Below are positions 4,581 through 59,015 of a DNA stretch of 64,000 bases, one piece after another. Source of the stretch: Chiloscyllium plagiosum (taxonomy: Eukaryota); NCBI RefSeq assembly GCF_004010195.1, contig NC_057718.1:69262748-69326747 (forward strand), given 5' to 3'. The notes under the pieces are model-generated. The model had not been told where the DNA came from and searched no databases. It saw nothing but the letters and a program-made list of their open reading frames with translations. Position 1 is the stretch's first letter; every line of letters starts with the position of its first letter. The position numbers were made by a program, and so were the translations under genes.

Positions 4581-6150
4581 ACTCCAGATTCTGGATTAGT
4601 GGTGCTGGAAGAGCACAGCAGTTCAGGAAACATCCGAGGAGCAGTAAAATTGACATTTCGGGCAAAAGCCCTTCATCAGGAATACAGGCAGAGTGCCTAA
4701 AGGGTGGAGAGATAAGCTAGAGGAGGATGGGGAGAAAGTAGCATAGAGTACAATAGGTGAGTGGGGGAGGGGATGAAGATGATNNNNNNNNNNNNNNNNN
4801 NNNNNNNNNNNNNNNNNNNNNNNNNNNNNNNNNNNNNNNNNNNNNNNNNNNNNNNNNNNNNNNNNNNNNNNNNNNNNNNNNNNNNNNNNNNNNNNNNNNN
4901 NNNNNNNNNNNNNNNNNNNNNNNNNNNNNNNNNNNNNNNNNNNNNNNNNNNNNNNNNNNNNNNNNNNNNNNNNNNNNNNNNNNNNNNNNNNNNNNNNNNN
5001 NNNNNNNNNNNNNNNNNNNNNNNNNNNNNNNNNNNNNNNNNNNNNNNNNNNNNNNNNNNNNNNNNNNNNNNNNNNNNNNNNNNNNNNNNNNNNNNNNNNN
5101 NNNNNNNNNNNNNNNNNNNNNNNNNNNNNNNNNNNNNNNNNNNNNNNNNNNNNNNNNNNNNNNNNNNNNNNNNNNNNNNNNNNNNNNNNNNNNNNNNNNN
5201 NNNNNNNNNNNNNNNNNNNNNNNNNNNNNNNNNNNNNNNNNNNNNNNNNNNNNNNNNNNNNNNNNNNNNNNNNNNNNNNNNNNNNNNNNNNNNNNNNNNN
5301 NNNNNNNNNNNNNNNNNNNNNNNNNNNNNNNNNNNNNNNNNNNNNNNNNNNNNNNNNNNNNNNNNNNNNNNNNNNNNNNNNNNNNNNNNNNNNNNNNNNN
5401 NNNNNNNNNNNNNNNNNNNNNNNNNNNNNNNNNNNNNNNNNNNNNNNNNNNNNNNNNNNNNNNNNNNNNNNNNNNNNNNNNNNNNNNNNNNNNNNNNNNN
5501 NNNNNNNNNNNNNNNNNNNNNNNNNNNNNNNNNNNNNNNNNNNNNNNNNNNNNNNNNNNNNNNNNNNNNNNNNNNNNNNNNNNNNNNNNNNNNNNNNNNN
5601 NNNNNNNNNNNNNNNNNNNNNNNNNNNNNNNNNNNNNNNNNNNNNNNNNNNNNNNNNNNNNNNNNNNNNNNNNNNNNNNNNNNNNNNNNNNNNNNNNNNN
5701 NNNNNNNNNNNNNNNNNNNNNNNNNNNNNNNNNNNNNNNNNNNNNNNNNNNNNNNNNNNNNNNNNTGGACTGTTCTACGTAGCCAACAAAGAGACAGGCA
5801 TTGCTGGGGCCCATACGTGTGCCCATGGCTACCCGTTTGGTCTGGAGGAAGTGGGAGGATTCAAAGGAGAAATTGTTAAGGGTGAGGACCAGTTCGGCCA
5901 AACGAATGAGAGTGTCGGTGGAAGGGTACTGTTGGGGACGTCTGGAGAGGAAAAAACGGAGGGCTTGGAGGCCCTGGTCATGGTGGATGGAGGTGTAGAG
6001 GGATTGGATATCCATGGTAAAGATGAGGCGTTGGGGGCCGGGGAAACGGAAGTCTTGGAAGAGGTGGAGGGTGTGGGTGGTGTCTCGAACATATGTGGGG
6101 AGTTCCTGGACTAGGGGGGATAGGACAGTGTCGATGTAGGTAGAGATTTG
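4581..6150 (-). mobile_element. Penelope-like retroelement: RT fragment, gap, 3' pLTR with hammerhead
   Basis: 5766-6150 encodes ELPTYVRDT..IFTMDIQSLYTSI..LNNFSF..QTKRVAMGTRMGP (PLE RT motifs); minus-strand CTGATGAAGGGCTTTTGCCCGAAA at about 4656-4679. Linkage across the gap is assumed. Confidence 0.85.
4784..5765. other. Assembly gap (N)
   Basis: Run of N. Confidence 1.
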
Positions 6151-6800: not shown

Positions 6801-7020
6801 ATGGCAGGTCAATTTGAAGTAATGGGATCTTTTAACAAAGAGACACAGAAAGCTGAATTCTGTACGCCAAATATTTTAATGCAAACAGAGTGGCTGAAGA
6901 TTTAGTGGTACCAGTTTACTTGAGCACTGGTAGGAGCAAGACTTTGCAATTCTAAGGAGTCTAGTGCAATAGAGAACTCAGTAAACAAGACATATAAAGA
7001 ACTATATGAAGTGTTGAAAT
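6801..7020 (+). mobile_element. Decayed Gypsy (Mag-like) gag N-terminus
   Basis: Broken frame MAGQFEVMGSFNKET...YFNANRVAEDLVVPVYLS..GA(K)TFAILRSLVQ resembles Mag-clade gag starts. Confidence 0.5.
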
Positions 7021-7699
7021 GTTGTACCAATGAGGATCTAAAATCTGGATTTAGGCCATTGTCAAGAACAACCATTTAATGCATGTCTTTACTAACTACA
7101 AAATGGCTCCTTAATGCAAGTAACATAAGGTAACATAACAAAATGGCTTCTCAGAGCAAATTAACAATTTGGTTTATAATGGCATCTAACTCTGCTGAAA
7201 ACGACATTCCTAAACTAATTGAAAGGGATTAGCAAACAATTCTCTATTCATAGTAAGATTTAACTAAGTAAGATATGGCATTATTAAAGAATCCTAAATT
7301 GACCTTGGAAACCAGGTGTCCCGGAGATTACAAAATCCCCATGTTTCTGCCACGGGAGTTCAAGTTTCTTGTAATCTCTCCCTACATTGGCAGAGTGATG
7401 CCTCTACCTGATGCACAATTGACCATTCTTCATCTCTGTGTCTATTTCCACTTCCACATCAGCACTCTGCTCTTAGGCTAATAGCATTCTAAAATGTCTT
7501 TGGCCTCTGCCTCAGTATGAGGTGACTGTATGAATTTATTTAATTCAGGGTTTATTTATTGTGAGGTAATTAGGGTCAATTATACCAAATGTTCCACTTG
7601 GTTCATCCTCACTTCTCAAAAATGTTTCAATGATCCTTTCACTTGCTTCTGGTGTCACATCAACCCTGATTGATGGATTTTAATAAATCACTGCCCTGA

Positions 7700-20307: not shown

Positions 20308-23300
20308 CATAGAACATAGAACATTACAGCGCAGTACAGGCCCTTCGGCCCTCGATGTTGCGTTGATCTGTCAGACCAATCTGAAGCCCATCTAACCTAC
20401 ACAATTCCATGTACGTCCATATGCTTGTCCAATGACAACTTAAATGTACTTAAAGTTGGCAAATCTACTGCCGTTGCAGGCAAAGCATTCCATACCCTTA
20501 CTACTCTCTGAGTAAAGAAACTACCTCTGTCCTATATCTATCACCCCTCAATTTAAAGCTATGCCCCCTCGTGCTCACTGTCACCATTCTTGGAAAAAGG
20601 CTCTCCCTGTCCACCCTATCTAACCCTCTGATTATCTTATATGTCTCTATTAAGTCACCTCTCAACCTTCTTCTCTCGAACGAAAACAGCCTCAAGTCCC
20701 TCAGCCTTTCCTCGTAAGACCTTCTCTCCATACCAGGCAACATCCCAGTAAATCTCCTCTGCACCCTTTCCAAAGCTTCCACATCCTTCTTATAATGCTG
20801 TGACCACAACTGTACACAATACTCCACATGTGGCCGCACCAGAGTTTTGTACAGCTGTAGCATAACCTCATGGTTCCGGAACTCAATCCCTCTACTGTTT
20901 GCCTTCTTAACAACCCTGTCAACCTGGGTGGCAACTTTCAAGGATCTGTGTACCTGGACACCGAGATCTCTCTGCTCATCTACACTACCAAGAATCTTAC
21001 CATTAGCCCAGTACTTTGCAATCCAGTTACTCCGACCAAAGTGAATACCTCACACTTGTCCACGTTAAACTCAATTTGCCACCTCTCAGCCCAGCTCTGC
21101 AGCTTATCTATGTCTCTCTATAACCTACAACATCCTTCATCACTATCCACAACTCCACTGACCTTAATGTCGTCTGCAAATTTACTAACCCACCCTTCTA
21201 TGCCCTCACCCAGGTCGTTTATAAAAATGACGAACGGCAATGGACCCAACACCAACCTTGTGGTACACCACTGGTAACTGGACTCCAGGATGAACATTTC
21301 CCATCAAACACCACATTCTGTCTTCTTTCAGCAAGCGAATTACTGATCCAAACTGCTATATCTCAAACAATCCCATTCCTCTGCATTTTGTACAATAGCC
21401 TACTGTGGGGAGCCTTATCGAACGCCTTGCTGAAATCCATATACACCACATCAACTGGTTTACTCTCATCTACCTGTCTGGTCACCTTCTCAAAGAACTT
21501 AATAAGGTTTGTGAGGCATGACCTACCCTTCACAAAACCGTGCTGACTACCCCTAACCAAATTATTCTTTTCTGGATGATTATAAATCCTATCTCTTCAA
21601 ACCTTTTCCAACACTTTACCAACAACTGAAGTAAGGCCCACTGGTCTATAATTACCAGGATTGTCTCTACTCCTCTTCTTGAACAGGGAAACCACATTTG
21701 CTATCCTCCAATCTTCTGGCACTATTCCTGTAGACAATGACGATTTAAAGTTCAATGCCAAAGGTTCGGCAATCTCCTCCCTGGCTTCCCAGAGGATCCT
21801 AGGATAAATCCCATCCAGCCCAGGGGACTTATCTATTTTCACACTCTGCAAGATTTCTAATACCTCTTCCTTGTGAACCTCAATCACACCGAGTCTAGTA
21901 GACTGTATCTCAATAATCCCCTTGACAACATTGTCATTTTCTAGAGTGAATACTGTTGAAAAATATTCATTTAGTGCTTCCCCTATCTCCTCTGACTCCA
22001 CACACGACTTCCCACTACTCTCCTTGATTGGCTCTAATCTTACTCTTGTCATTCTTTTATTCCTGAAATAACTATAGAAAGCCTTAGGGTTTACCCTGAT
22101 CCTATCTGCCAACAACTTCTCATTTCTCCTCCTGGCTCTTCTNNNNNNNNNNNNNNNNNNNNNNNNNNNNNNNNNNNNNNNNNNNNNNNNNNNNNNNNNN
22201 NNNNNNNNNNNNNNNNNNNNNNNNNNNNNNNNNNNNNNNNNNNNNNNNNNNNNNNNNNNNNNNNNNNNNNNNNNNNNNNNNNNNNNNNNNNNNNNNNNNN
22301 NNNNNNNNNNNNNNNNNNNNNNNNNNNNNNNNNNNNNNNNNNNNNNNNNNNNNNNNNNNNNNNNNNNNNNNNNNNNNNNNNNNNNNNNNNNNNNNNNNNN
22401 NNNNNNNNNNNNNNNNNNNNNNNNNNNNNNNNNNNNNNNNNNNNNNNNNNNNNNNNNNNNNNNNNNNNNNNNNNNNNNNNNNNNNNNNNNNNNNNNNNNN
22501 NNNNNNNNNNNNNNNNNNNNNNNNNNNNNNNNNNNNNNNNNNNNNNNNNNNNNNNNNNNNNNNNNNNNNNNNNNNNNNNNNNNNNNNNNNNNNNNNNNNN
22601 NNNNNNNNNNNNNNNNNNNNNNNNNNNNNNNNNNNNNNNNNNNNNNNNNNNNNNNNNNNNNNNNNNNNNNNNNNNNNNNNNNNNNNNNNNNNNNNNNNNN
22701 NNNNNNNNNNNNNNNNNNNNNNNNNNNNNNNNNNNNNNNNNNNNNNNNNNNNNNNNNNNNNNNNNNNNNNNNNNNNNNNNNNNNNNNNNNNNNNNNNNNN
22801 NNNTGAAGTAGACACACTTCAAACCAACTTCTTGCTTGCTGGTGCCATCTTGCATCCTTGAAACTTGATTTCGGACCTCCCTACTTTCAACCTTTTCTAT
22901 ACTCGAACTACAACTTTGGTTCCCATACCCCTGCTGGATTAGTTTAAATCCACCCCAATAGCCTTAGTGAACTCCCCCCCCCACCTCCAGGACACTGGTA
23001 GCCCTCTTGTTCAGATGAAAACCATCCTGCTTGTCGAGGTCCCACCTACCCCAGAAAAAAACCCCAATTATCCAAGAATCCAAAACCCTCCCTCCTGCAC
23101 CATCCCTGTAGCCACGTGTTCAACTCCTCGCTCTCCCTATTCCTTGCCTCACTAGCATGTGGCACGGACAACAAACCAGAGACAACAACTCTGTTCGTCT
23201 TAGCTCTAAGCTTCCATCCTAGCTCCCTGAATTTCTGCCTTAAATCCCCATCTCTCTTCCTACATATGTCGTTGGTGTCTATGTGGACCATGACTTGGAG

Positions 23301-50099: not shown

Positions 50100-52650
50100 A
50101 TATGTTGCATAGACAGGCTGGTCAGATGGGCTGATTAGTAGCAAATGGAATCTAAATTTAAATAATGTGAGGTGATGCACTTGGGCAGGACAAACAAGGC
50201 AAGTGAATACGTAAAGCCATAAGACATTGGAGCAGAAATTAGGCCATTCAGCCTATCGAGTCTGCTCCACCATTCAATCATGGCTGTTAAGTCTCTCGAC
50301 ACCATTCTTCCGCTTTCTCCCCATAACCCTTGATCCCTTTGACAATCAAGAACCTATCTATTTCAGTCTTAAATCTGTTCAATGACCTGGCCTCCACTGC
50401 GTTCTGTGACATTGAATTCCATAGATTCACTGTTCTCTGGTTGAAGACGTTTCTCCTTATCTCCATTCTAAAAGGTCTTTCTTTTACTCTAAGGCTGTGC
50501 CTTGAGTCCCAGTCTTTCCTACCAATGGAACCATCTTCCCAATGTCTACTCTCTCCAGGCAATTCAGTATTCTGTAAATTTCAATTAGATTTCTCCTCAT
50601 CCTTCTAAGCTCCATCGAGTATTCTCATGAACCTCCTCTGAGCTCGGTCCAGGGCCAGTACATCCTTCCTGAGATATGGTCCCAAAACTGCACACAATAC
50701 TCCAACTGGGTCTGACCAGGGCCTTATAGAGCCACAGAAGTACATTCCTGCTTTTATATTCAGGTCCTTTCAAAATAAATGCCATCATTACATTTGCCTT
50801 CCTAACCACCTGCTGACTCAACCTGCAAATTTACTTTGAGAGAATCCTGGAATAGAACTCCCAAGTCTCTTTGCACTTCAGACTTCTGAATTTTCTCTCC
50901 ATTTAGAAAATAGTCCATGCCTCTATTCTTCCTGCCAAAGCGCATGACCTCACACGTTGTACTCCATCTGCCACTTCTTTGCCCATTATCCTAACCTGAT
51001 CAAATCCTTCTGCAGCCTCCCTGCCTCCGCAATGCTACCTGTCCCTCTACCTATCTTTGTATTGTCTGAAAACCTAGCTAGAATGCTGTCAGTTCCTTCA
51101 GCTAGATTGTTAATGTATAAAGTGAAAAGTTGTGATCCCAAAACTGAGACTTGTAGAACTGGTTTCCATCCTAAGAAGAACCCTTTTATCCTTACTCTCT
51201 GCACCAGACAGCCAAGCTTCTATCATGTTAGCACCTTGCCTTTAATGCCATGGGCCCTTATCTTACTCAGTAGCCTCTTGTACGGCACTTTGTGAAAGAT
51301 CGTCTTGAAGTCCAGGTAAACTTGGTCTAACTTGCTCGTAACTTCTTCAGAGAATTCTAGCAGACTTATCAGGCATCACCTCCCCTTGATGACTATACTG
51401 ATTTTGCCTATTTTACCATACACTTCCAAGTAATCAGAAACCTTACCCTTCACAATGGATTCCAGTACCTTACCCATGACTGAGGTTAGGCTAATTGGTC
51501 TGTAATTTTCCATCCTTTGCCGTACTCCCTTTTTAAACATGGTTTTAATGTTAGCGATTTTTTAGTCCTTCGGTACCCTCCCTTTCGTTAGTGATTTCTG
51601 AAAGATCACCAATAACGCCTCCACTATTTCTTTAGCTATGTCCCTTAGAATTCTGGGGTGTAGTCTATCTGGTTCAGGTGATTTATCCACCTTCAGGTCA
51701 TTCAGTTTTTCTAGCAACTTCTCCTTGGTGATGGCCACTATACTTGGCTCTGCCCACTCACTCTCTTATAGTTTTGGGATATTACTCATGCCTTCCACCG
51801 TGAAGACTGATGCGAAGTAATTATTTAGTTCCTCAGCTATTTCCTTGTTCCCCACTAGTATCTCTACAGCATCATTTTCCAGCGCCCCAATGTCCACTTT
51901 TGCCTCTCTTTTACCATTTATATATGATGAACGGATGGACCCTGGGAAACACTAAGGATCAGTGGGACATTGGTGTGCATGTATACCTGTCCCTTAAGGT
52001 AACAGGATAGGTGGATAAGTGGTTAAGAGGGCATAAGGTACACTTGCCTTCATTAGCTGAAGCATAAGGTTTACAAGCACGGAGGTGATATAATTGTATA
52101 AAAGATTAGTTAGGCCATAGCTTCTGCAATGTGTGCAGTTCTGGAATCCACATTACAAGAGGGAAGTGATTGCACTGGTTAGGGTGCTGAGGCGGTTTAC
52201 CAGACTATTGCCTGGTCTGGTGAGTTTCAATTATGAAGTGAGATTGGACAGACTGGGTTGTTTTCCTTGGAGCAGAGGAGATTGAGAACGGGCACAATTA
52301 AAATGTTTAAAATTATGAGGAGCATAGAAAGTGTAGTGAGGAAGAAATGTTTTGCTTTGATGGAGGGATCATTGATCATGGAGCACAGATTTAAGGTAAA
52401 GGATAGGAAATTTTGAGGTGATGTGAAGGAAAATCTTTTCACCAAGAGGATGGTGAGAATCTGAAACTCACTGCCTGTAAAGGTGGTAGAGGCAGAAATC
52501 CTCATAATATTTAAGATGTATTTAGATGTACACATGTGATTCCAAGGCATACAAGGCTATGGGGGCCAAGTACTGAAAAATGGGATCAGAGTAGTTAGGT
52601 TTTTGACTGACCCAGACTTGATAGGCCAAAGGGTCCTTTTTTCTATGATT
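50100..52650. mobile_element. Old plus-strand CR1 3' part interrupted by a minus-strand CR1 (50217-51925)
   Basis: ORFs 50287.., 50597.., 50986.. on minus; plus-strand CR1 resumes at about 51925. Confidence 0.8.
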
Positions 52651-53430: not shown

Positions 53431-53436
53431 TTAATT

Positions 53437-54225
53437 GGTTAGGCCACTGTTGGAATATTGCATGCAATTCTGGTCTCCTTCCTATCAGAAAGATGTTATG
53501 AAACTTGAAAGGGTTCAGAAAAGATTTACAAGGATGTTGCCAGGGTTGGAAGCTTTGAGCTATCAAGAGAGGCTGAACAGACTGGGGCTGTTTTCCCTGG
53601 AGCGTCGGAGGCTGAGGGGTGACCTTATAGAGGTTTACAAAATTATGAGGGCCATGGATAGGGTAAATAGAACAAAGTCTCTTCCCTGGGGTCGGGGAGT
53701 CCAGAACTAGAGGGCATAGGTTTAGGGTGAGAGGGGAAAGATACAAAAGAGACCTACGGGGCAATGTTTTCACACAGAGGGTGGTACATGTATGGAGTGA
53801 GTTGCCAGAGGAAGTGGTGTAGGCTGGTACAGTTGCAACATTTAAAAGGCATTTGGATGGGTATATGAATAGGAAGGGTTTGGAGGGATATGGGCCGGGT
53901 GCTGGCAGGTGGGACTAGATTGGGTTGGGATATCAGGTCAGCATGGACAGGTTGGACCGAAGGGTCTGTTTCCATGCTGTACACCTCTATGACTCTGGAA
54001 ATGTCTCAGATTTGGAATTTTGGCAACACATCAAAACGAGGCCAGTGCCACCGAATTGCATTAATTTAAAGTCATCAGATGATTATATGAATCAGAAAGG
54101 CTTAGAGGAATATGAGCCAAGTGCTGCAAATGAGACTAGATTAGGTTGAGATATCTGGTTGACATGGACGAGTTGGACTCAAGGGTCAGTTTTTGTGCTG
54201 TACATCGGTATGACTTTATGACTCT
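53437..54225 (+). mobile_element. CR1 (HER1-like) 3' fragments
   Basis: ORF 53435..53710 VRPLLEYCMQFWSP..GLFSLERRRLRGDL; (CTATGACT)n-like tails. Confidence 0.88.
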
Positions 54226-54379: not shown

Positions 54380-55180
54380 TGTTTTAAAAAATTCTTAAGG
54401 TCAAGGACCAGGCTCGCAGGAAAGTAGTCTGACACAGAACAAACAGCCAAGAGGCGAGTCTGCTAGAATATAGTTTTATTCCCCGCAGTGTCCCCACAAC
54501 CAGTCTCGTACTTACAACGGGTCTGGCTTATACTCACTCTACATGTTACCAAAACTGGGAGCCGTCAGTTCTCGTAGAGCGGTTGCCAACAACCCACGCT
54601 CGGCGGTTAAACGTAACCCCGGAGCAGACTCTACCGAACTGGAGACTTCTCCAGCTGATTTACCCTTTTCCAGATATAAACATTCATGTGAACAGCAGAG
54701 CAAGGCTAAAAAACACATTCCATTCTGGTTACATACAGATAAGAAGATTCACACAGGAAGGTGTATAACAAGATTCACACGGGACTAAGCGACACCTTCC
54801 ATTTTCGGTTAGATTCACACATGTATTGGGACACAATTTTAACCCTTTCACCACACGGTGAGAGAGAGACTCATAGAAACCCGGGGCTGCGCGCTCAGGA
54901 ATCGACACGCGCTCCGTCTGTAACTAACCCCGACCCCCCGCCCAGGTTGACCCGCGGGGCGAGGGTTCGACTTACAGGGAGTGGGCTCCCCGACTGGGAG
55001 ATTAATAAGCCAATGCCAACAACATCCCTTAGCATGCCTGCTAGCTTTACTTTAAATTAGCTTCTGTTAAGTTACACCCGCTGAGCCCCTACCATGGGTG
55101 GGAGCGCGGCCGAAGACCTAGATTGGGTGCCAGAGGGTTCCCTTACCCGTCTCCAAGTCTCAGGTATTGAGAATGCCAGA
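54380..55180 (-). mobile_element. Young CpG-rich LTR-like element (unassigned family)
   Basis: Minus strand has TATAA (about 54528-54532), AATAAA (54475-54480) and a terminal ..AAAACA at 54380; three AGATTCACAC repeats (54745, 54771, 54811). The 5' boundary is uncertain and no TSD was found. Confidence 0.55.
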
Positions 55181-55299
55181 CTATAATTTTTTTTTGCTTT
55201 AAATTAGTTACTTGAGTCCAATAGTTGGAAACTAAAGGTTAGCTAATGACCATTTCTATCTGGCTGGATACAAGAAGACTCATATGATTCATGCTGCCA

Positions 55300-55906
55300 T
55301 GGAGATTGACCTTGACAGAGGAGGGGTCTACAAAAAGCCATTTGTAGGGCTGGGTTATTGGCTTTCCAAAAGATATCCCAGAAGTTCACAAGTTAATCTG
55401 ACAGAATCGAAGAGGAAGCCAAATAGCAAAGTTAACAAGAACAAATTTCTATGTTTACCTTGCGGGAATGCAGATGGAACCTCATGCTCAAATTGGAAAG
55501 GCCAAATTTTTAAGGATTTGAAATGAGGCTGCAAGATTTGCTTAACTTGAGCTGGGGAGATAATGTCCAGGAAGCTGCTGGAAAGGAAGACTATTGGCAA
55601 AAATATGACAGAACAATTAGAATTTGAGCATGAATTCCACATTGATTAGACCCAAATACTCCATACAATGAAGGTGATGAAGGGTGATTTAATTGGATTG
55701 TTTAAGATAACTAAAAGAGTTGAAAGGGCAGACAGAGAAAAATGATTTCCTCTGGCAGGAGAATCAAGAGCAAGACTGTGTAAAATTAAAGCCAGACAAC
55801 ATAAGGATAATGTCAGGAATCATTTCTTCACACAAAGAGTAGAAGAAACCCTAACCTTCCACTTTGTAAAAAGCCTTGGACCCTGCAGGTCAATTCAAAA
55901 TGTTTA
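55300..55906 (+). mobile_element. Old CR1 3' fragment abutting the ERV-like integrase
   Basis: Decayed GDLI..FK../FFTQRV motifs. Confidence 0.6.
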
Positions 55907-56530
55907 GACTCAGACCAGGGCACGCACTTCACCGGACGCGCAATGAAACTGGCCTGCCGCCTCCTAGGCATCAGACAGCACTTCCACGTCCCGTTCCATC
56001 CCCAGAGCTCCGCGATGGTCGAACGCATGAACCGGACCCTCAAAGCGGCGATCGTGAGGGCGATCGTCGAAACAGGGCAGGGCTCGGTGGACGTTCTGCC
56101 CTGCATACTGAGGCGCTTAAGGGCCACCCCAGGCCGCTCCACTGGCATCACTCCCTTCGAGCTCATGACGGGGAGGGCCATGTGACTACCAGAGAACGTC
56201 ATGGTCGGGGGGGGAGACATGGCCCCCCTGAGGGACAGGGTGACGCGCTATATCAGGCAGCTGGACACGCAGCTGCGGGCCCTTAGACAAATCGCGTGCG
56301 ACCAGCAGGACATTAGGGACCAGGCAAAACTGCAGCCGCATCTGCCCGCCCAACCCCTTCCCGGCGTTGGGGACAAAGTCCTGGTCAGGGCCAACCCCGA
56401 CCGGCCCAGCTTCACCCCCTGGTGGCTGGGACCACACGAAATCATCCTCACCAGCGACACGTGCGCCTGTGTCGACATGAAGGGAAAGGGCAGGTGGAAA
56501 CACTGGTCCCAGCTTAAAACCTACCCTTAA
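55907..56530 (+). pseudogene. pol: Retroviral-type integrase (core + C-terminal GPY/F-like region), one in-frame TGA
   Basis: DSDQGTHFTG..HPQSSAMVERMNRTLK (D-x35-E counted); TGITPFELMTGR; GDKVLV..PWWLGPHEI. The TGA at 56183-56185 is consistent with CGA>TGA decay. Confidence 0.92.
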
Positions 56531-56575
56531 GCCCCGACCGGACAGACTCTCCTCACCTCCCCCCTTTTGACTTGA

Positions 56576-56696
56576 CTCTAACCGCCCCTCTTTCTCCTTA
56601 CAGTGCAGCGGGTGGAGCGGTTCCAGGGAGACCTGCTCCTACACACACTAACCCTACACCCTTGGTAAGGGTGCCTCTCTCCCTCTCTTCCCACAG
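56576..56696 (+). promoter_or_regulatory. Two splice acceptors with branch points and an intervening donor upstream of env
   Basis: CTAAC..CCCCTCTTTCTCCTTACAG (AG ends 56603); TTG|GTAAGG (56664/56665); ACTAAC 56647-56652 ..CTCTCTCCCTCTCTTCCCACAG (ends 56696); ATG at 56700. Confidence 0.7.
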
Positions 56697-56699
56697 ATC

Positions 56700-58478
56700 A
56701 TGCTTCACCGGTGCACCGCTCTCCTCCTCTTCGCCCTACGACTAGTGCCTTCCTTCCCCGTATTCTGTATTCCTGCAAGGGACAAACCCGATGTGATCGA
56801 CGCGTTCTACAATGCCTGGCTGGAAGTTCTCCCGGGCGTACAGACACTCTGTTTATTCTGCACGTCNNNNNNNNNNNNNNNNNNNNNNNNNNNNNNNNNN
56901 NNNNNNNNNNNNNNNNNNNNNNNNNNNNNNNNNNNNNNNNNNNNNNNNNNNNNNNNNNNNNNNNNNNNNNNNNNNNNNNNNNNNNNNNNNNNNNNNNNNN
57001 NNNNNNNNNNNNNNNNNNNNNNNNNNNNNNNNNNNNNNNNNNNNNNNNNNNNNNNNNNNNNNNNNNNNNNNNNNNNNNNNNNNNNNNNNNNNNNNNNNNN
57101 NNNNNNNNNNNNNNNNNNNNNNNNNNNNNNNNNNNNNNNNNNNNNNNNNNNNNNNNNNNNNNNNNNNNNNNNNNNNNNNNNNNNNNNNNNNNNNNNNNNN
57201 NNNNNNNNNNNNNNNNNNNNNNNNNNNNNNNNNNNNNNNNNNNNNNNNNNNNNNNNNNNNNNNNNNNNNNNNNNNNNNNNNNNNNNNNNNNNNNAGAGGG
57301 AGCATACATCCAGCTCGACGGCATTGCAGTCCTGGAAACACACGCCCACACCATTAACCGCCTTATAGACCGGGCCATGCGTATGGCCTGTGGATGGTAG
57401 CCCAGATCCGGCATAATCTTGACCAGATCCAAAGGGGGGAGGTGCCCGATTGGATCGACAGTGCCAAACTGGCCTCACTCGCGGGGCGCTCCGGGCCGCT
57501 CGACAGCCGGACTCTGAAGGGTATGACCAGAGTATACCCAGTGATGCCTGACTTTGAGGTCAGTGAGGCGACAGGAGTCGGGATTGTCCTCCTGATCCCC
57601 GTGGTCACCCCAGAGTCGGGACCATTTCCCCTGTTTCACATTGAGAACATAGGAGTCATACGCTTCCATCAAATATCGATTAGCTCACCACACAGCCATT
57701 TCTCGAAACGGCGCTGTGTACGGGGTGCCGCTTACAGGCTGCAAGCAGCAGGGGGCAATTACCATCTGCCCTCACCCCTTACGAAGGAGTGAAACAGCAG
57801 ACTGCAGGTTCAACCAGACACAGGGCTGCATCCTTAAAATCGAACCCACGGGCTCCCACTTCACTAGGGCGGGGTATGGTGGGGGGGACGATATTGTGTC
57901 TCCACTCTTGAAACCTCATTTTGGTATAATGGATTGCAGTGCCTTATTCCCCAGCACGAGTTCTGCTTCACCCCCAGGCGCCCAGTCACGGTTGGGCAAG
58001 CTCACATCTCAGAGGTCCGACGACGGAACCCTGAGTCCACACAAACTACTGATAAATTCAGGGACACCCTCAGGGAATATCAGGAGTCCGAACAAGCCCC
58101 CATCCCACATTTGGCTGAGGTCTTATGGGAGCTTAGGACCCGGATAGGACACTCAGTGAAATTGTATCACCAGTTGCAGTCGCATGTAAAGGACCTAGAG
58201 AAGGGCACAGACACAGCTCTGCAGTCCCTGGGGTGGGCACAGAGGGTGTGGGATTGGGGCCTGAACGTAAACATCCATCCATGGATCCGAATCATCTCGC
58301 ACACCATTGTAGGCATACAGTTACTGCTGGCTCTGGCCTGGCTCTGGCCTGGCTCCTGCTGGCGTGTCATTCATGCCGCCAGCACAAGAAACGAAAGGCC
58401 AGGAAGACCATGCTCCACGCCATTGACTCCTGGCGGGCGATCAGGCACTGTGAGCCCACAGGGCTCGAGTTAATGTGA
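56700..58478 (+). pseudogene. env: Env-like class I fusion glycoprotein (paramyxo/pneumovirus F-like), frameshifted, partly in gap
   Basis: Signal peptide MLHRCTALLLFALRLVPS; Cx8Cx11Cx7C at 57740-57829; heptad LYHQLQSHVKDLEKG; Trp-rich membrane-proximal region; TM IISHTIVGIQLLLALAWLLLAC after removing an 11-bp duplication (58328-58349); basic tail HKKRKARK. Confidence 0.8.
56867..57294. other. Assembly gap (N) inside env
   Basis: Run of N. Confidence 1.
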
Positions 58479-58613
58479 CCTTCTCCCGGGACTATCCAAA
58501 GGCCCCATGACTGCAGCATGACGGCCGGCGAAATGTACCGGGCGAGGAGCTGACTTTTAAAATATCGGCATCGGGGGTGTGGACGTGTCCAACCCCTTGC
58601 CGAAAGGGGGGAC

Positions 58614-59015
58614 TGCAAGCGGGCATCAGAGCCGCCCTGCTTTTGCCATGGGACTATGCCTACATCAGGAAACTATAAGAATTCATTTTGTGTTTTAAAC
58701 AGCAGTCGCAGCTTTAAACCCATAGAACTCAGCAGCTGCCGGTCCGGCCACGTGACCGGGAGATAGGAGACAGAGGACAGATCAAATCCACACTAGACCA
58801 ACACTATCCATGACTCATAGACCAAAACTCCGGAATTAATTAATATGGAAACCCATCTCCTAATCACATCAAGAGACTAACTGAAACACACCCATGGAGA
58901 GCAGTCGAGATTCGGACCTCGGTTGGTCTCCGCCGGCGTTACTGTAGCAATAAACGTTACCGATTGTTGAACCGCACTCTGGGCTCGGACTGATATCATT
59001 TCATCCGCGCTAACA
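58614..59015 (+). repeat. 3' LTR (402 bp) preceded by polypurine tract
   Basis: PPT GAAAGGGGGGA at 58602-58612; starts TGCAAGCG and ends CGCTAACA (imperfect terminal inverted repeat); AATAAA at 58949-58954. Confidence 0.8.

Follow-up and report, generated by a model that had tools for sequence, protein, structure and literature searches.

The 64,000-nucleotide stretch of the Chiloscyllium plagiosum genome analysed here (contig NC_057718.1, positions 69,262,748 to 69,326,747 of the forward strand), hereafter called the window, carries on its plus strand an endogenous retroviral element that spans positions 54856-59015. Our best explanation, which we consider probable, is that the element is a dead, non-autonomous copy and that its parent was a canonical fish-type retrovirus equipped with an F-type envelope glycoprotein (Env), not a lokiretrovirus. 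An earlier note on the same DNA had described a relatively young, lokiretrovirus-like endogenous virus in a probable shark genome or, alternatively, an independent capture of an F-type fusogen by a retroelement with long terminal repeats (LTRs). What that note observed is partly confirmed by the present analysis, and its interpretation is partly supported. The shark host agrees with the origin of the closest Env proteins, 15 of 16 being named from sharks and the best one coming from Chiloscyllium punctatum (88%).

On the evidence of its pol sequences, the family to which the element belongs is a canonical retrovirus and not a lokiretrovirus. The nearest database relative of its reverse transcriptase (RT) comes from Heterodontus (59% identity), followed by elements of fish and frogs (45-51%), a gamma-like element of a caecilian (40%) and a further set at 35-37%, from which three proteins (P0037-39) were taken as lokiretrovirus (Loki) proxies on account of their motif-for-motif match to the Loki-Str and Loki-Lch rows of a published RT alignment. 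In a maximum-likelihood tree of RT (LG+C20; 30 rows by 237 columns; root placed at three gypsy-like rows), the Loki proxies branch first, the 24-row remainder that includes the shark group is set apart at 98/95, and the shark group itself (five rows, 100/97) adjoins cyprinid and unnamed elements. A clade uniting shark and Loki sequences, which was the hypothesis of the earlier note, costs 28 log-likelihood units when imposed as a constraint and is rejected by the approximately unbiased (AU) test (p 0.000144), run after the tree had been seen. The integrase phylogeny that the note had proposed as a check, built with the window fragment (X at the stop), places the fragment on the canonical side, paired with the full integrase of another locus, L026 (98), and separated from the Loki proxies by a branch of 96; complete integrases of the family match Integrase_H2C2 and rve in Pfam. 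Scored against PDB sequences, the RT reaches 148 bits with the murine leukemia virus (MLV) type, 128 with foamy virus, 99 with Ty3 and 60 with HIV-2, and the integrase reaches 137 bits with prototype foamy virus (PFV), its best match, and 89 with Ty3. The row of the published alignment that most resembles the shark RT by eye is that of snakehead retrovirus (SnRV), which agrees with it at roughly half of the first 118 residues aligned and in several long motifs. No relative was found when a viral contig collection was scanned with the RT, and a word-indexed protein search with the same query returned no exogenous retrovirus among its matches. As a part of the overall explanation, we think it likely that pol sits with the canonical retroviruses of fish and amphibians, on the snakehead-retrovirus/epsilon-like side.

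The layout of Env was taken from longer natural frames in other copies and from database homologues. The protein, of about 700 residues, begins with a signal peptide and an N-terminal part of about 210 residues, continues through a cleavage site, a fusion-peptide-like stretch, heptads and a long beta-rich, cysteine-bearing region, and ends with a second heptad region, a membrane anchor and a short tail. The cleavage site, as found in other copies and homologues, is of the RxxR kind (RHRR and RRKRR; RSKR in Mustelus) and is followed by the fusion-peptide-like stretch; the subunit past it, about 460 residues long, has the length known from F proteins and not that of the classical retroviral transmembrane subunit (TM). 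The ectodomain of the Mustelus homologue was modelled with AlphaFold2 (AF2) from 48 rows (predicted local distance difference test [pLDDT] 70.9, predicted TM-score [pTM] 0.48). Foldseek returned 240 PDB matches at an E-value of 1e-3 or lower, led by the F protein of respiratory syncytial virus (RSV) at 1.2e-8; among the best 40 of the 240, 39 were F proteins of paramyxo- or pneumoviruses and one was a foamy virus Env, with alignments spanning nearly the whole model. VIA-align gave Z scores of 9.4 for the F protein of Newcastle disease virus (NDV; 294 residues), 9.2 for that of Langya virus (298 residues) and 9.1 each for RSV and human parainfluenza virus 3 (hPIV3), all 50 among the matches listed being F proteins. 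A search of 48,161 chains that was independent of Foldseek placed F proteins at the top six ranks (Z 8.7, then 6.7-6.9) and foamy Env at rank 10 (Z 5.8, 264 residues). Matches in BFVD included the Envs of walleye dermal sarcoma virus (WDSV, 3.0e-9) and walleye epidermal hyperplasia virus 1 (WEHV-1, 7.7e-9), baculovirus F proteins, F0 proteins and feline foamy virus Env (1.7e-4), and the nearest clusters of the ESM Atlas were Baculo_F (0.92, 0.91 and 0.90) and Fusion_gly (0.87 and 0.86). Because four independent structure rankings agree, the assignment of Env to the class I fusogens of F type is supported by the predicted structure, as the earlier note had supposed in preference to a classical TM, and the intact protein would presumably work as a fusogen.

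The same family of envelopes can be followed in sequence databases. An Env profile run against 1.84 billion representatives collected 54 proteins, including a single bacterial false positive; the ten matches that were looked up came from sharks, the skate Rhinoraja, the frogs Pelodytes and Mantella (16 members) and two unnamed assemblies, together with the false positive, and no teleost relative occurred among these ten. A search of the genome with PF00523 gave no match, but its control was silent as well, so that the result carries no weight. Some distant Env relatives bear an N-terminal immunoglobulin (Ig) V-set-like domain, recognized at an E-value of 9.9e-6 in P0094, weakly in P0076 and as an Ig-like annotation of UniRef in P0057; it may be a receptor-binding module swapped in ahead of the F-like body.

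The anatomy of the parent was read from loci L012 and L028-L031, the genome search that the earlier note had recommended having recovered full-length relatives in which RT, the RNase H architecture, gag and the primer-binding site (PBS) could be examined. The parent consists of a 730-bp LTR, a PBS, a leader, gag, a TGA codon, pro, RT, a tether, RNase H, integrase, env, a polypurine tract (PPT) and a second LTR. Pfam recognizes RVP, RVT_1, RT_RNaseH_2 together with RNase_H (PF00075), that is, a dual RNase H, and also Integrase_H2C2, rve and zf-CCHC. Gag comprises 451 residues in L030, starts with MGG and has one CCHC knuckle; Pfam gave no Gag_p30 match on it. The TGA that ends gag lies in frame with the protease in all five loci read, and when the genome was queried across gag and protease, 11 of the 12 top matches had exactly one stop, again TGA. 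In L030, the 18 bases after the 5' LTR, which form the PBS, are complementary at every position to the 3' end of the host tRNA-Pro with its CCA. Two of the loci hit by the tRNA-end pattern held tRNA genes, all five of them for tRNA-Pro; the six pattern loci taken first held no tRNA gene and look like primer sites of other elements. A variant PBS, with one extra base and other differences from that of L030, was noticed at L011 7015-7035 and L012 2434-2454. The full order of a canonical provirus (LTR-PBS-gag-pro-pol-env-PPT-LTR, bounded by a target duplication) was thus found in copies other than that of the window. Expression of such a provirus would involve a Gag-Pro-Pol polyprotein made by readthrough of the stop codon, as in gamma- and epsilon-type retroviruses, and an Env translated from a spliced RNA by way of an acceptor-like site just before its ATG. 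The comparison of paired LTRs, likewise proposed in the earlier note, gave Kimura two-parameter (K2P) distances of 0.032, 0.037, 0.040 and 0.037 in four sister-copy pairs; the range of 0.032-0.040 corresponds to 73-91 My at 2.2e-10, the elephant-shark rate assumed in excerpts of PMC4422223, and to 16-20 My at 1e-9, a rate assumed for this analysis. The family is not young at either rate.

The window copy retains the following parts, given with their positions in the window:
54856-55093, plus strand: fragment of the leader (5' untranslated); homology with other copies begins exactly at 54856
55094-55148, plus strand: start of gag, an ATG and about 18 codons beginning MGG; matches the N terminus of the 451-residue Gag of L030
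55149-55906, plus strand: AT-rich, CpG-poor host insert resembling a long interspersed nuclear element (LINE); 758 bp, GC 0.38, CpG observed/expected (o/e) 0.07
55907-56530, plus strand: C-terminal part of integrase with the second D, the E and LGPH; 89% identical to the integrase of L026
56680-56699, plus strand: putative splice acceptor of env, a pyrimidine tract and CAG, recognized from sequence only
56700-58478, plus strand: env, broken; read directly and by comparison with other copies and shark homologues
58603-58612, plus strand: PPT; found again ahead of the 3' LTR in all four other copies read
58614-59015, plus strand: 3' LTR, TG...CA, with TATAAG at 58674 and AATAAA at 58949

The features that the earlier note placed between 55907 and 59015 are real, but the true start of the element lies upstream, at 54856. 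The leader and the start of gag (54856-55148) have a GC content of 0.58 and a CpG o/e of 0.76, and the CpG richness that the note had pointed out holds for the retroviral parts in general (CpG o/e 0.60-0.87, against 0.19-0.28 in the flanks). In another copy, L011, the 5' LTR ends 485 bases upstream of the point that matches the start of the window element; in the window, neither a 5' LTR nor a PBS was detected, and no LTR match occurs upstream within the 64 kb. The LINE-like insert stands in place of gag, protease, RT, RNase H and the N-terminal half of integrase, and its translated motifs resemble the ends of LINE-like open reading frames (ORFs) elsewhere in the window. Fragments of LINE-like RT ORFs, at 50287-51951 (minus strand) and 53435-53710 (plus strand), share C-terminal motifs with the insert.

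Downstream of the insert, direct reading agrees with most of what had been noticed. The D-x35-E integrase piece does begin at 55907, with the second D and the E only, and has neither a zinc finger nor the first catalytic D; LGPH at 56426 represents the GPY/F-like C terminus; and no chromodomain is present, in that the integrase frame stops at 56530 with nothing further and Pfam finds only weak rve, rve_3 and MLVIN_C. The signal-peptide-like start and the hydrophobic anchor of env, at about 58291-58359, as well as the PPT and the TG...CA termini of the LTR, were read as described. The splice acceptor stands as a sequence feature, a pyrimidine tract and CAG at 56680-56696 with the env ATG at 56700, three bases past the CAG (56696), but splicing is not borne out by RNA reads, which gave no joint at this site (0 and 12 raw reads) and so neither show nor exclude splicing; the only joint among the RNA reads skips 95 bases inside the LINE-like insert. 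A contig from another organism breaks at 56695, and its letters upstream of the break match none of the loci compared.

The description of the copy as having few disablements and being relatively young is not confirmed. The copy is without 5' LTR, PBS, protease, RT and RNase H; its gag is cut to 18 codons; the integrase has an in-frame TGA at 56183-56185; the frame of env is broken, relative to another copy, by deletions of 40, 8 and 4 bases at about 57375, 57663 and 57885; and the LTR is without the 328 bases (between 58895 and 58896) that are present in the 730-bp LTRs of other copies. A run of 428 N letters (56867-57294) hides the cleavage site and fusion peptide of the window env, beyond which a helix resembling heptad repeat B (HRB) can be followed from about 58051, ahead of the anchor and a short tail. 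Two side observations concern the assembly and the anchor region. N runs of uneven length occur in the window at 4784-5765, 22143-22803 and 56867-57294, and in L012 at 6809-7026, where an identical coding stretch of 25 residues on either side looks like an artefact of gap assembly. At 58316-58337 the window holds 11 anchor-region bases more than L018, which look like a short tandem duplication and are missing in contigs from two sequencing runs.

The gag-pol-deleted structure is not peculiar to the window. The genome searched amounts to 3.56 Gb in 101,977 contigs, in which the env-LTR query gave 78 DNA matches outside the window (86-94% identity; 530 candidates, 40 scored) and the Env query 132 matches (647 candidates). 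A query across the 55906/55907 junction gave 41 scored matches, of which 31, the window included, span the junction, seven begin at it and represent the full-length type, and two end just past it. The chimera is accordingly commoner than its full-length parent among the scored junction matches (31 against 7). One full-length copy, L012, is without the LINE-like insert, and its homology starts exactly at 55907. Two places match the LINE-like side only, to 7-15 bases past the junction and with 96-98% identity (C18:64855949-64856263 and C27:21540633-21540948); these are perhaps truncated copies, or else related to the donor sequence. Target duplications of 4 bp, AATG and AGTA, bound two junction-type copies, out of three copies whose flanks were readable on both sides. 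Since the copies have 4-bp duplications, LTR pairs and flanks of their own, the chimera spread by integration and not by segmental duplication. In our explanation, (i) a LINE-like host fragment took the place of the greater part of gag and of the whole of pol as far as the middle of integrase; (ii) the derivative kept the LTRs, PBS, leader, PPT and env; and (iii) it reached at least 30 other places, presumably by retrotransposition or reinfection, with proteins supplied in trans by full-length relatives. In sequencing runs labelled as coming from three further organisms, contigs contain 6-31% of the env-LTR words that were sampled, so that close relatives of the family occur beyond the species of the window.

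Several observations weigh against the explanation that we favor. On the side of pol, (i) the Loki proxies were labelled by eye from a published alignment, (ii) the trees hold no named SnRV, WDSV, MLV or foamy RT, and (iii) the likeness to SnRV was likewise judged only by eye, from a row of that alignment. With regard to Env, (iv) Pfam searches with pieces of the protein and its homologues (E-value of 1 or less, or 10 or less) gave no match to PF00523 or PF12259, (v) profile searches of PDB sequences with Env alignments of 15 and 49 rows returned coiled-coil noise only, (vi) the model is that of the Mustelus homologue, 63% identical to the env frame of L018, and not of the broken gene in the window, (vii) a first AF2 run on the full-length protein with 15 rows reached a pLDDT of only 29.8, (viii) TM-scores are low (0.23-0.42) and root-mean-square deviations high, and (ix) Z scores of 8.7-9.4 stand barely above the range of 7-8 that the tool calls common. 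As for the history of the chimera, (x) C13, the third copy, shows an ambiguous target duplication, and (xi) we infer trans mobilization, readthrough and splicing alike.

These observations can be explained by alternative rationales, among which membership of the lokiretroviruses, as their cartilaginous-fish representative, has to be considered in view of the dual RNase H, the F-type Env with RxxR or RSKR as described for that lineage, and an ANGFW motif common to the shark RT and the Loki rows. We nevertheless regard it as very improbable: the RT is closer to the other fish and frog elements (45-51%) than to the Loki proxies (35-37%), both trees and the AU test separate the family from these proxies, and the Env finds no PF00523 match, whereas Loki-Str gives an E-value of 2.2e-7 in the published account. 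The Env-profile matches looked up include sharks, skate and frogs but no teleost, and a published screen, according to excerpts of its supplement (PMC7947760), found no lokiretrovirus in three orectolobiform genomes, one carcharhiniform genome and Callorhinchus. The lokiretrovirus-like label of the earlier note is not supported; and of the two findings that the note had itself set against its reading, a pol nested among canonical retroviruses was obtained, while an envelope of classical TM type was not.

It is also unlikely that the element belongs to foamy-like (class III) endogenous retroviruses of cartilaginous fish and not to SnRV/epsilon-like ones, even though PFV provides the best PDB sequence match of the integrase, the 60 PDB matches listed include no full-length integrase of MLV type, and the RT scores 128 bits with foamy RT. 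Foamy viruses express Pol from its own mRNA, have no Cys-His boxes in Gag and possess an Env with a leader peptide. In the shark family, on the contrary, gag and pro-pol share one frame across the TGA, Gag has a CCHC knuckle, and Env, at about 700 residues with a single C-terminal anchor, does not have the leader-peptide layout. The published F-like nature of foamy Env (excerpts of PMC11468914) would suit a foamy affiliation, but foamy Env ranks under F proteins and the WDSV Env model, and the RT motifs are, by eye, nearer to the SnRV row than to those of ZFERV-2 and AciFLERV. We likewise give little credence to a canonical retrovirus whose envelope was replaced by an F-type glycoprotein captured from another retroelement or a negative-strand RNA virus, for which it may be said that the top ranks in BFVD go to the glycoproteins of negative-strand viruses from arthropods and of a filovirus-like virus from fish (E-values of 2e-11 to 3e-11) and that the nearest Atlas clusters are arthropod Baculo_F proteins. 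However, the Env models of WDSV and WEHV-1 match nearly as well, structural E-values at such distances give no direction, no donor was found at the sequence level in the 1.84 billion representatives, and pol and env both have frog relatives, which means that they may have travelled together. With feline foamy virus Env also matching, the independent capture put forward in the earlier note is not needed.

If the element is read, as we prefer, as the remnant of a canonical fish-type retrovirus with an F-type Env, its pol side is ordinary, and its Env side enlarges the F-type retroviral envelopes, as far as the predicted structures can be trusted, by a new compact family. The misfiling that is corrected here is instructive, in that an F-type envelope in a shark element does not make a lokiretrovirus. 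The Env family is well populated, has no Pfam model, and its members are named only 'uncharacterized'; it is tied structurally to the envelopes of the walleye epsilonretroviruses and hence bears on the question of one or several origins of retroviral envelopes. The matches to the walleye Env models suggest that the F-type envelope is not confined to foamy viruses and lokiretroviruses and, WDSV and WEHV-1 being concerned, that class Ib envelopes exist inside Orthoretrovirinae. A wider proposal, which we put forward with considerable doubt, is that this compact Env family of sharks, skates and frogs, similar to F in size, points to an F-type (class Ib) envelope as the usual and perhaps ancestral one of fish-type canonical retroviruses (SnRV-like, epsilon and foamy) and lokiretroviruses. 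If this were true, gamma-, beta- and lentiviruses would have obtained their class Ia Env later, as a replacement, which would run counter to the grouping of orthoretrovirus Env as a whole in class Ia found in excerpts of PMC11468914. The chimera provides a case of a non-autonomous retrovirus that spread while env was retained. In the literature, exclusive of a 2023 J Virol paper on foamy endogenous retroviruses (ERVs) of cartilaginous fish and a 2021 preprint on the evolution of the surface subunit, which the search did not cover, we found no paper on this shark family or on an F-like Env of SnRV or epsilonretroviruses.

Among known systems, the SnRV clade, which comprises SnRV and ERVs of fish, amphibians, reptiles and birds (excerpts of PMC12193657), looks, by eye only and from the SnRV row of the alignment, nearest to the shark family in RT motifs, and has in common with it the layout with an in-frame gag stop, SnRV being described as producing gag-pol by readthrough of such a stop (excerpts of PMC13517186). 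Lineage I of the elephant-shark CmiERV elements clusters with SnRV, and both SnRV-clade and epsilon-like ERVs are known from the chimaera (excerpts of PMC4422223). On the other hand, the stop is TAG in SnRV and TGA in the shark family, the Env tail of SnRV comprises 136 residues (excerpts of PMC12193657) and that of the shark family is short, and no accessory ORFs were seen in the shark family. Readthrough of UGA is listed in excerpts of PMC13517186 for the swim bladder sarcoma virus of salmon (SSSV), zebrafish endogenous retrovirus (ZFERV) and a toad ERV. With the epsilonretroviruses, the family has in common the gag-stop layout, although readthrough itself is only presumed in the shark, and the match of the WDSV and WEHV-1 Env models to the shark model at the E-values given above; with 1159 and 1317 residues, the walleye Envs greatly exceed the shark protein of about 700, and the WDSV row is, by eye, less like the shark RT than the SnRV row.

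Lokiretroviruses, as defined by RT placement and a PF00523-like Env (excerpts of PMC7947760 and PMC9040795), share with the shark family the dual RNase H, the order gag-pol-env-LTR and an Env of F type that bears a basic cleavage site, of which the dual RNase H occurs in canonical retroviruses as well and does not discriminate. They differ in that their pol stands apart in the trees, the shark Env has no detectable similarity to PF00523, the shark family has no smc gene, and cartilaginous fishes are not among the hosts reported in these sources. Despite the negative screen of orectolobiform genomes for lokiretroviruses, Env proteins of the shark family are annotated in C. punctatum. Foamy Env has been published as F-like ('class Ib'), orthoretrovirus Env as a whole being placed in class Ia (excerpts of PMC11468914); in its postfusion form it aligns to the shark Env model at Z 5.8 over 264 residues, and it has a leader peptide and an inserted receptor-binding domain that are lacking in the shark Env. 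Neither foamy Env nor F proteins show sequence similarity to the shark Env. The predicted fold of the shark Env aligns to the F proteins of paramyxo- and pneumoviruses over model residues 14 to about 400, and the protein is near them in size, with a modest N-terminal addition only.

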